Below, in pieces: positions 1 through 951 of a stretch of DNA of 951 nucleotides. The notes below the pieces were generated by a model. It made no database searches. It saw only the letters and a program-made list of their open reading frames with translations, and was not told the DNA's origin. Origin of the DNA: Escherichia coli (GTDB lineage: Bacteria; Pseudomonadota; Gammaproteobacteria; Enterobacterales; Enterobacteriaceae); assembly GCF_003334785.1 (NCBI RefSeq), contig NZ_QOWV01000069.1, one strand, 5' to 3'. Position numbers and translations under genes: made by a program. Every line of letters starts with the position of its first letter. Position 1 is the first letter of the stretch.

Positions 1-237
1 CCCCTGCAGCGGGTCATAATAGCGGTGGCGGTTGTAATACAGGCCGGACTCCTCATCATACTGCTGCCCCGGCAGGCGGATAAGCTGCTGCAGCTGATGC
101 GGGTTCTCTTCATTCAGCAGGTTGCCCCATTCATCGTATTCTGCGCACCATTCTGTTGCCCCTTCCGTGCTGATAAGCGCCAGCGGCAGGCCGCGATGGT
201 CGCAGTGGTACAGGTGGATTTTTCGCGCCGGCGTGTA
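1..237 (-). other. N-terminal portion of the RHS repeat-associated core domain (TIGR03696-like), truncated by the window edge before the DPxGL motif
   Basis: Residues ~239-317 of the in-window translation ([79 protein letters not shown]) match, from memory, the pattern of this domain: a YD-type repeat, then 'xRxPGQYYDEETGLYYNxxRYYDPxxGR', then DPxGL. The domain start is approximate and the assignment rests on recalled motif knowledge, not a computed HMM score. Confidence 0.7.
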
Positions 238-951
238 CACCGGGTCCATCTGGTTTTGCATCTGCTCCACGGTCAGGCCGCACGATGCCAGCCAGCGGCG
301 GCTTTCCTCACTCACCCGGTCAGCCAGGATTTCACTTTCCAGCCGGTCGAGCATCTGCACCAGCACCGGCGGGAACACCACACTGCCACCGTCTTCGCCG
401 CCGGACTGCTGAAGGGTATCCGCCAGGCTGCGGCGCTGCGTTTTCGCCAGCTCACCGGTGGCGGTTTCAACCCTGATGAGTGGCGTGAAGCTCCCCGGCT
501 GATAAATCGTCTGGATGCGGGTTCTGTCGTTCTGTATCGTGGTCAGGCGGTCGCCGTCCCAGCCGTACCAGGTCACTTGCGGTTTCCGTGACAGCGACAT
601 CCAGCCCGTCAGGTCCCGTTCACGTCGCCACACCCGTTTTGCCACCCTGCGGCCCAGCGGGTCGTAAAGATAGCGGCTTTCGACCAGCGGCTCTGCATAT
701 TGTGTCCGCGTGTAGTGCACCAGCCGGTGCTGACTGTCGTAATGGTACCGGTGGGTGCGCTCATCATCCGTGCGGATAACCCCTTCCGGGATGAGGTCGG
801 TTTTCTCTGTCAGCCTGCCGTGACGGTCATACCGGTAAAGATAGTGCGCGTCACGGGCGATACGGTTATCCGGCCACATGCTGAGGGTGCTGTCCGGGTG
901 CAGCTCCGGGTCGGGCAGGCGGTTACCTGCCGGGTCTGTGGCATACGGGAT
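1..951 (-). CDS. rhs: Rhs family YD-repeat core protein, internal/3'-proximal fragment (partial at both ends; no start or stop codon in window)
   Basis: Reverse-complement frame in register with + position 1 is open for 317 codons; I checked it block by block and found no stop. Translation (N to C, + 951 down to 1): [317 protein letters not shown]. It contains multiple YD-repeat signatures (xYxYDxxGRL-like) and the characteristic '[21 protein letters not shown]' segment that precedes the DPxGL motif in Rhs core proteins. G+C is about 62% by hand count, as expected for enterobacterial Rhs cores. The paralog (rhsA/B/C/D-type) cannot be assigned from this fragment. Confidence 0.93.

Follow-up and report, generated by a model that had tools for sequence, protein, structure and literature searches.

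In the Rhs proteins of Escherichia coli the beta-sheet wall of the cage seems to be interrupted close to its C-terminal end by some 80 residues that probably leave the wall, form a small bundle of helices and then return. The stretch of DNA analysed here (the window) is 951 nucleotides long and comes from E. coli (NCBI RefSeq assembly GCF_003334785.1, contig NZ_QOWV01000069.1); over its whole length (1-951, minus strand, as are all features below unless stated) it holds an open reading frame fragment, read from its translation, a protein profile and DNA identity as belonging to an Rhs core of the E. coli RhsA-D type, of which it covers the C-terminal part. The segment in question is 81 amino acids long (window 232-474, residues 160-240 of the translation), and is placed in the turn of a beta-hairpin by an alignment gap against solved Rhs cages and by AlphaFold2. 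The explanation we favour, with a probability of about 0.68, is a conserved and clade-specific helical insertion in that turn, most likely an exterior decoration of the cage with a structural role, and not a plug or a decayed repeat.

The proposed element would be an alpha-helical excursion of about 80 residues, in which a flexible Gly/acidic loop accompanies five short helices. It sits in the turn of one wall beta-hairpin, following ...SFTPLIRVE, and some 30 residues separate it from the C-terminal plug and autoprotease further on. The chain would exit the wall, make a small helical bundle with a conserved Leu/Trp core and rejoin the wall at the neighbouring strand, and by correspondence with Tse5 and Tse15 the bundle would lie outside, on the cage surface close to the C-terminal end. 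It would have a structural role, either to brace the last hairpin or to offer a clade-specific acidic outer surface that contacts another protein or another cage, and such a bracing or docking role is speculative; the insert is probably neither catalytic nor a plug. The protein family has long been known and the insert already lies inside the curated profile NF041261, and so the finding is a modest correction, otherwise an ordinary structural detail of a known family and not a new kind of element. Rhs cages are usually pictured as smooth beta-shells in which nothing but the autoprotease and the two plugs is functional. Among E. coli Rhs cores the most widespread one carries a conserved 80-residue module, predicted to be helical, at a hairpin that is variable in other Rhs proteins, and the insert is a concrete, deletable element for probing loading, secretion and release.

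The segment in alignments and in the predicted cage

The segment is distinguished by two things, its predicted structure and the gap that opens when it is aligned with solved Rhs structures. When searched with phmmer against all PDB sequences both flanks align to solved Rhs cages and the segment is skipped. Query residues 163 and 245 fall on positions 1313 and 1316 of the S. bongori Rhs (8qjc), leaving 2 residues between, and residues 162 and 243 fall on 1176 and 1182 of P. protegens RhsA (7q97), leaving 5; in Tse5 (8cp6_B) residues 165 and 238 fall on 984 and 1012, with 27 between. A profile made from 18 homologues repeats this picture, with Tse15 and the A. mimigardefordensis Rhs core included. 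Searches for anything recognisable in the segment were negative: the repeat models PF05593 and TIGR01643 have no match within residues 160-240, a Pfam scan of the insert gave no match even at E≤10 and one of the insert with 13 homologous inserts nothing significant, and an insert profile run against PDB sequences found only chance helical matches (best E 0.023). Similarly a Foldseek comparison of the isolated insert model (mean confidence 68, see below) with the PDB reached a best E of 4.8, with no fold assignable.

The segment had first been picked out as 81 residues without the YD-repeat signature, and this description is exact for residues 160-240, where neither Y-x-[YFW]-D nor G-[RQK]-[LIVM] occurs at all, while YRYD..GRL, YHYD, YLYD and YGWD are present upstream. 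Composition differs also, with Tyr at 1.2% against 8.1% in the flanks and His at 0% against 5.1%. Absence of the motif is by itself weak evidence, because elsewhere in the beta-sheet wall of full-length RhsC stretches of 195 and 128 residues go without a YD and are still predicted to be beta-hairpins; the spacing of literal YD motifs was dropped as a test for the same reason, true wall regions showing gaps just as long. That parts of RhsC without a literal YD for up to 195 residues remain beta-hairpins is what speaks for reading the segment as YD repeats, two or three of them, that have degenerated but keep the register of the beta-spiral, a possibility that the sequence-only reading had named as the one that would undo its proposal and which the profile alignment does not bear out. 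Given that no repeat model matches in the segment, that it is predicted to be helical both in the cage and when folded alone, and that solved cages with the conserved flanks have no such segment, decayed repeats are a very improbable explanation. The alternative from the same reading, a distinct insertion, agrees with all of these results: solved cages do without the segment and yet their flanks align, no repeat or Pfam model matches, and the prediction is helical and not beta. As far as alignments and profiles can tell, the segment is a real insertion at a variable site.

AlphaFold2 was run on RhsC residues 80-1262, with an alignment of the 84 matches of at most 1,700 residues from a search of 1.84 billion representative proteins. 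The model has a mean predicted local distance difference test score (pLDDT) of 85.9 and a predicted template modelling score of 0.79, and its superposition on Tse5, RhsA and the A. mimigardefordensis Rhs core gives target-normalised template modelling scores (TM-scores) of 0.84-0.86. Structure prediction and comparison with solved shells had been suggested earlier as a check, and the outcome is a cage that superposes on solved Rhs shells and an insert that is helical within it. The insert corresponds to model residues 979-1059, between strands 976-983 and 1062-1069. With 78 residues it runs on without a strand for longer than any other part of the model, where the second such stretch has 29, and it accounts for 43 of the 76 helical residues. 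Its confidence, taken in blocks of 10 residues, is 78-89 save for the Gly/acidic loop at 61. The helicity of the insert remains a predicted property.

Read along the protein, the last wall strand before the insert (residues 157-164, TPLIRVET; window 460-483; model strand 976-983) carries the conserved SF.PL.R anchor, which is kept in all homologues aligned and pairs with 'FVPLLRLEQ' of Tse5. Predicted helix 1 (residues 165-169; 445-459; model 984-988) is followed by predicted helix 2 (residues 176-183, LADTLQQS; 403-426; model 995-1002), which holds a conserved 'sLAxxLxQ' motif, and then by the putatively flexible Gly/acidic loop (residues 184-194; 370-402), which is coil in the model with a block mean pLDDT of 61. 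This loop had been proposed to be flexible on account of its QSGGEDGGS stretch, and the model does make it coil, at a confidence below that of any other part of the insert. Predicted helix 3 (residues 195-209; 325-369; model 1014-1028) has a conserved 'L..LE.EL' motif, predicted helix 4 (residues 215-223, EESRRWLAS; 283-309; model 1034-1042, block mean pLDDT about 89) a conserved 'LS.eS..WL' motif, and predicted helix 5 (residues 228-233, VEQMQN; 253-270; model 1047-1052) completes the set. EESRRWLAS and the other stretch earlier thought helix-prone are thus both helical in the prediction. The first wall strand after the insert (residues 243-250, RKIHLYHC; 202-225; model strand 1062-1069) opens the conserved HLYHCDH.G.P motif, and aligns to strands of Tse5, RhsA, the S. 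bongori Rhs and Tse15.

When folded alone, with 14 homologous inserts in the alignment, the insert reached a mean pLDDT of 68 and helices 2-5 were again predicted (helix 3 at residues 36-50 in isolation). Blocks within residues 31-70 scored 72-85 and the first 14 residues, helix 1 included, were disordered. Because helices 2-5 persist in the isolated fold and the first 14 residues do not, the models suggest that the C-terminal helices are a semi-autonomous unit and that the insert's N-terminal portion needs the cage.

Conservation of the module and variability of its site

The length of the site, defined as the distance between the two flanking anchors, was compared in 60 homologues, from a sample restricted to the top 150 representatives of the RhsC 80-1262 search, and ranges from 6 to 114 residues. 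The E. coli RhsA-D type has 79 residues there, and a second E. coli/Salmonella class has 74 and is without five residues of the Gly/acidic loop, so that this five-residue extension is lineage-limited. Alignable inserts of 65-73 residues are found in Serratia, Citrobacter and Paracidovorax; Comamonas and others have 77-114 residues of a different, low-complexity sequence; a Tse5-like class, with the FFHTDHLGTP motif, has 35-53; and Chitinimonas and one other have only 6-12. The module of 65-80 residues, with the pattern sLAxxLxQ - loop - L..LE.EL...LS..S..WL....L, is common to the Rhs proteins of E. coli, Salmonella, Serratia, Citrobacter and Paracidovorax, and its conserved positions are mainly Leu and Trp, which fits a bundle core, with no conserved polar set. 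Whether the insert would prove conserved or lineage-specific across Rhs subfamilies had been posed as an alternative, and both halves of it apply in part: the module is conserved within its class, and other lineages carry 6-114 residues of unrelated sequence at the site. Searches with the insert alone and with its profile in a set of 5.8 billion proteins returned only E. coli, Shigella and Enterobacter Rhs fragments of at most 142 residues, and are uninformative on distant taxa or on occurrence outside Rhs proteins.

Nei-Gojobori ratios of nonsynonymous to synonymous divergence (dN/dS) against three diverged homologues are 0.19-0.57 for the insert and 0.09-0.34 for the flanks, values that are approximate because dS is near or above saturation in several pairs. 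The insert is under purifying selection, and in most pairs this is more relaxed than in the wall strands. At the DNA level GC is 0.58-0.68 across the whole window with no step at the borders of the insert, and this uniformity over insert and flanks argues against a recent insertion of DNA.

Among the homologues, P0085 (L004:434-9603; its cluster includes a Salmonella enterica protein) is a full-length one with a 74-residue insert. It is followed by an ankyrin-repeat gene, and since it adjoins tssA (ImpA_N), tssG and tssF it appears embedded in a type VI secretion cluster. P0087 (L002:276-3548) has 1,090 residues and shares 74% identity with the window region; Pfam gives a weak Phage_GPD (VgrG-like) match N-terminal to its partial Rhs core, and the gene may therefore be a VgrG-Rhs fusion or have been rearranged.

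Position on the cage and possible roles

The insert is likely to sit on the outside of the cage, close to the C-terminal end, by analogy with Tse5 and Tse15, in which extra residues at the same turn lie outside. The chain 8cp6_B has 1,121 residues and matches the Tse5 shell fragment 48-1168, and therefore its positions 984-1012 are Tse5 residues 1031-1059, which coincide with 'Helical Region 2' (1031-1062), a helical surface protrusion resolved in the map and missing from Rhs1 and RhsA (PMC10684867). The flanks of Tse15 align to 8uxt_A positions 1242 and about 1283, a numbering that is native since the DPxG aspartate is at 1369, as in the D1369N mutant, and residues 1256-1267 of Tse15 are unmodelled and described as 'a solvent exposed exterior loop' (PMC11461821). 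For the S. bongori Rhs, Kielkopf et al. point to loop 1312-1315 as a place where other Rhs proteins have longer loops (10.1101/2024.02.26.582050). A rough comparison of volumes also favours the exterior: the residues of the insert take up about 10,600 cubic angstroms and the 150-residue RhsC toxin about 19,500, together some 30,000, more than the cavity of about 25,000 cubic angstroms reported for the S. bongori Rhs (10.1101/2024.02.26.582050).

The sequence-only reading had thought of insertions that help to close or plug the shell, a role for which the results give little room. Plug regions are elsewhere, with TIGR03696 starting from residue 272 and the Tse5 C-terminal plug, residues 1092-1168 (PMC10684867), aligning downstream; the insert falls neither within the plug domain models (DUF6531 for the N-terminal plug, TIGR03696 for the C-terminal one) nor within the plug residues of this solved homologue, and cages without the insert are still closed. 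Helices placed in the cavity or on the C-terminal plug, where they would close the cage or hold the toxin, could nevertheless appeal to the short distance of about 30 residues between the insert and the plug region (TIGR03696 at residue 272) and to the precedent of the P. protegens RhsA 'anchor helix' 289-302, which binds the inner wall (PMC8765631), and the outside position of the E. coli insert is after all deduced from analogy and from volumes. In Tse5 and Tse15 alike what is added at this turn lies outside the cage, and insert plus toxin exceed the S. bongori cavity in volume, which makes such an interior or plug-related insertion unlikely.

If the bundle is outside, its amphipathic helices might dock the cage on the membrane of a target cell, as proposed for Tse5 Helical Region 2, which is at the same site and touched a bilayer in a 1-microsecond molecular dynamics run (PMC10684867); the predicted helices of the insert do have moderate hydrophobic moments (1.2-2.1). 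This fits poorly with charge, as the net charge is negative in every one of the 14 full-size inserts (-1 to -9, the window -5) and in the shorter Tse5-like class as well (-2 to -11), which is unfavourable toward anionic bacterial membranes. Further, the proposal for Tse5 is itself simulation-based only, sequence comparison shows no homology with the Tse5-like inserts, and the conserved Leu/Trp pattern suits the core of a bundle, and so a membrane-interaction module would be an improbable use of the insert. A loop that grew by drift and is tolerated without specific function is a live alternative, if one to which we give a small chance only. It would account for lengths of 6-114 residues with unrelated sequences among lineages, for an insert dN/dS two to four times that of the flanks in most pairs and for the lineage-specific five-residue indel within the Gly/acidic loop, and it has to contend with dN/dS below 1 in every comparison, with a hydrophobic pattern kept from Enterobacterales to the betaproteobacterium Paracidovorax and with helices that are confidently predicted (block pLDDT 78-89). 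In a more ambitious version the helical bundle would be a functional exterior adaptor of enterobacterial-type Rhs proteins, for docking a delivery partner or for cage-cage docking, or a latch coupled to the C-terminal plug that influences toxin release. We hold this to be doubtful; if true, it would give the Rhs cage a functional part that had gone unrecognised so far.

Several points weigh against the exterior structural decoration that we prefer. The alignment behind the AlphaFold2 model is shallow, with 85 sequences only, and what places the E. coli insert outside is an analogy of position together with an approximate comparison of volumes. Comparison by hhalign of the full-size insert profile (A2) with that of the 38-57 residue Tse5-like inserts (A4) gave a probability of 1.5%, that is no homology, and so the likeness to Tse5 is one of site and secondary structure only. 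To the saturation of dS in several pairs must be added that between P0087 and P0085 the dN/dS of the insert, 0.187, is lower than that of the N-terminal flank, 0.273. The role proposed for the insert is speculative.

The surrounding Rhs core and comparison with known systems

Judged by profile and DNA matches the window is part of an E. coli RhsA-D-type Rhs core. Reverse-complement frame 1 is its sole long open frame, with 317 codons and 0 stops. Rhs loci of E. coli match the window DNA at 99.8-99.9% identity, and this DNA is present in 3,888 of 5,426 complete genomes at a median of 5 copies per genome; the translation is 98.4% identical to residues 899-1215 of K-12 RhsC. It is collinear with positions 913-1229 of NF041261 (NCBIfam RHS_core, RHS element core protein) at E 8.6e-207 and 689.7 bits, the curated cutoff of 2000 bits being set for whole proteins and out of reach for a fragment of 317 residues, and the insert by itself matches positions 1072-1152 at E 1.4e-36.

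Of the two blocks of YD repeats that the sequence-only reading saw around the segment, the upstream one stands and the downstream one does not. Upstream, YD-repeat beta-hairpins of the cage wall extend over residues 37-159 (window 475-843), as supported by motifs, PF05593 and TIGR01643 matches and model strands, with YxYD motifs at residues 39, 69, 94 and 129; across the window the PF05593 match is weak and TIGR01643 and TIGR03696 are each above cutoff. Downstream is instead the PF03527 'RHS protein' motif (residues 245-281; 109-219; Pfam, E 5.2e-15), and then the start of the TIGR03696 Rhs-associated core (residues 272-316; 4-138; profile positions 1-42, E 2.3e-9), which belongs to the C-terminal plug and autoprotease region. 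From the placements of NF041261, PF03527 and TIGR03696 the window spans the end of the cage wall and the start of the C-terminal plug. It terminates at ...YYDPLQG, just short of the DPxGL autoprotease motif, and in the matching K-12 genes (RhsC and an orphan fragment) the DPxG-x18/19-DPxG aspartyl autoprotease motif is directly downstream, outside the window.

The best K-12 match of the window is that N-terminally truncated 'orphan' core fragment, downstream of rhsC-ybfB (L001:5986-7506), which has its own toxin end, is followed by ybfC and keeps the helical insert intact. The plus-strand open reading frames listed for the window are antisense to the rhs frame, among them one of 188 residues (window 25-591, plus strand) with no promoter-like site and no other support; long antisense open reading frames are expected in DNA of about 60% GC. 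A scan of the window for promoters and terminators found 0 promoter-like sites and 1 terminator-like match, at chance level, and an internal promoter inside the insert, which had been considered, is unsupported for want of any candidate in that scan.

Two other parts of the RhsC model recall surface features of Tse5. A second strand-free stretch of 21 residues (window nt ~856-918, residues ~12-32, model 831-851) is predicted as coil, with block mean pLDDT of 73-82, and its position is approximately that of 'Predicted Helical Region 1' (873-914), which also protrudes from the surface of Tse5. Near the N-terminal end of the cage RhsC residues 251-279 (L001 nt ~2186-2272, outside the window) form a 29-residue strand-free stretch with a 15-residue helix, which may be the counterpart of a third Tse5 surface protrusion (141-167).

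The literature searched held no description of the insert in E. coli-type Rhs proteins, and so the nearest comparisons are with solved cages from elsewhere. Closest is Tse5 of Pseudomonas aeruginosa (PA2684, PDB 8cp6), which the cage model as a whole matches best in structure (target-normalised TM-score 0.85, 31% identity). Its Helical Region 2 is at the same hairpin turn, between the ...PLLR.E and ...FFHTDHLGTP strands, and like the insert, for which this is a prediction, it has helical content and lies about 30 residues ahead of the C-terminal plug; it is about 30 residues long compared with 81 in E. coli. Tse15 of Acinetobacter baumannii (PDB 8uxt/8uy4) likewise has extra residues in the same gap between strands, its exterior loop 1256-1267, although the gap is shorter than the E. 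coli insert (about 40 residues between strands), partly disordered and not described as helical. The S. bongori Rhs (PDB 8qjb-d; loop 1312-1315) and P. protegens RhsA (7q97) have homologous flanking strands but a turn of 2-5 residues and no insert. P. protegens RhsA does offer, in its anchor helix 289-302, another instance of a helix attached to an Rhs cage, but one that is short and amphipathic, N-terminal, inside the cage and part of the N-terminal plug assembly, and is unrelated to the insert in position and sequence.

Helical Region 2 of Tse5 was tied by its authors to the pore-forming toxin of that protein, being absent from 13 homologues with enzymatic toxins (PMC10684867). Unlike in Tse5, the larger insert described here is on a core joined to different toxin ends, namely the RhsC toxin, that of the orphan and a DUF4329-containing one; in RhsC and the orphan the C-terminal toxin regions (L001:5189-5629 and L001:7050-7506) gave no Pfam match up to E 10. 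Inserts longer than that of Tse5 are common at this turn, and their occurrence on cores with several unrelated toxin ends tempers the idea, raised in the Tse5 study, that helical protrusions here go with a pore-forming toxin in particular.

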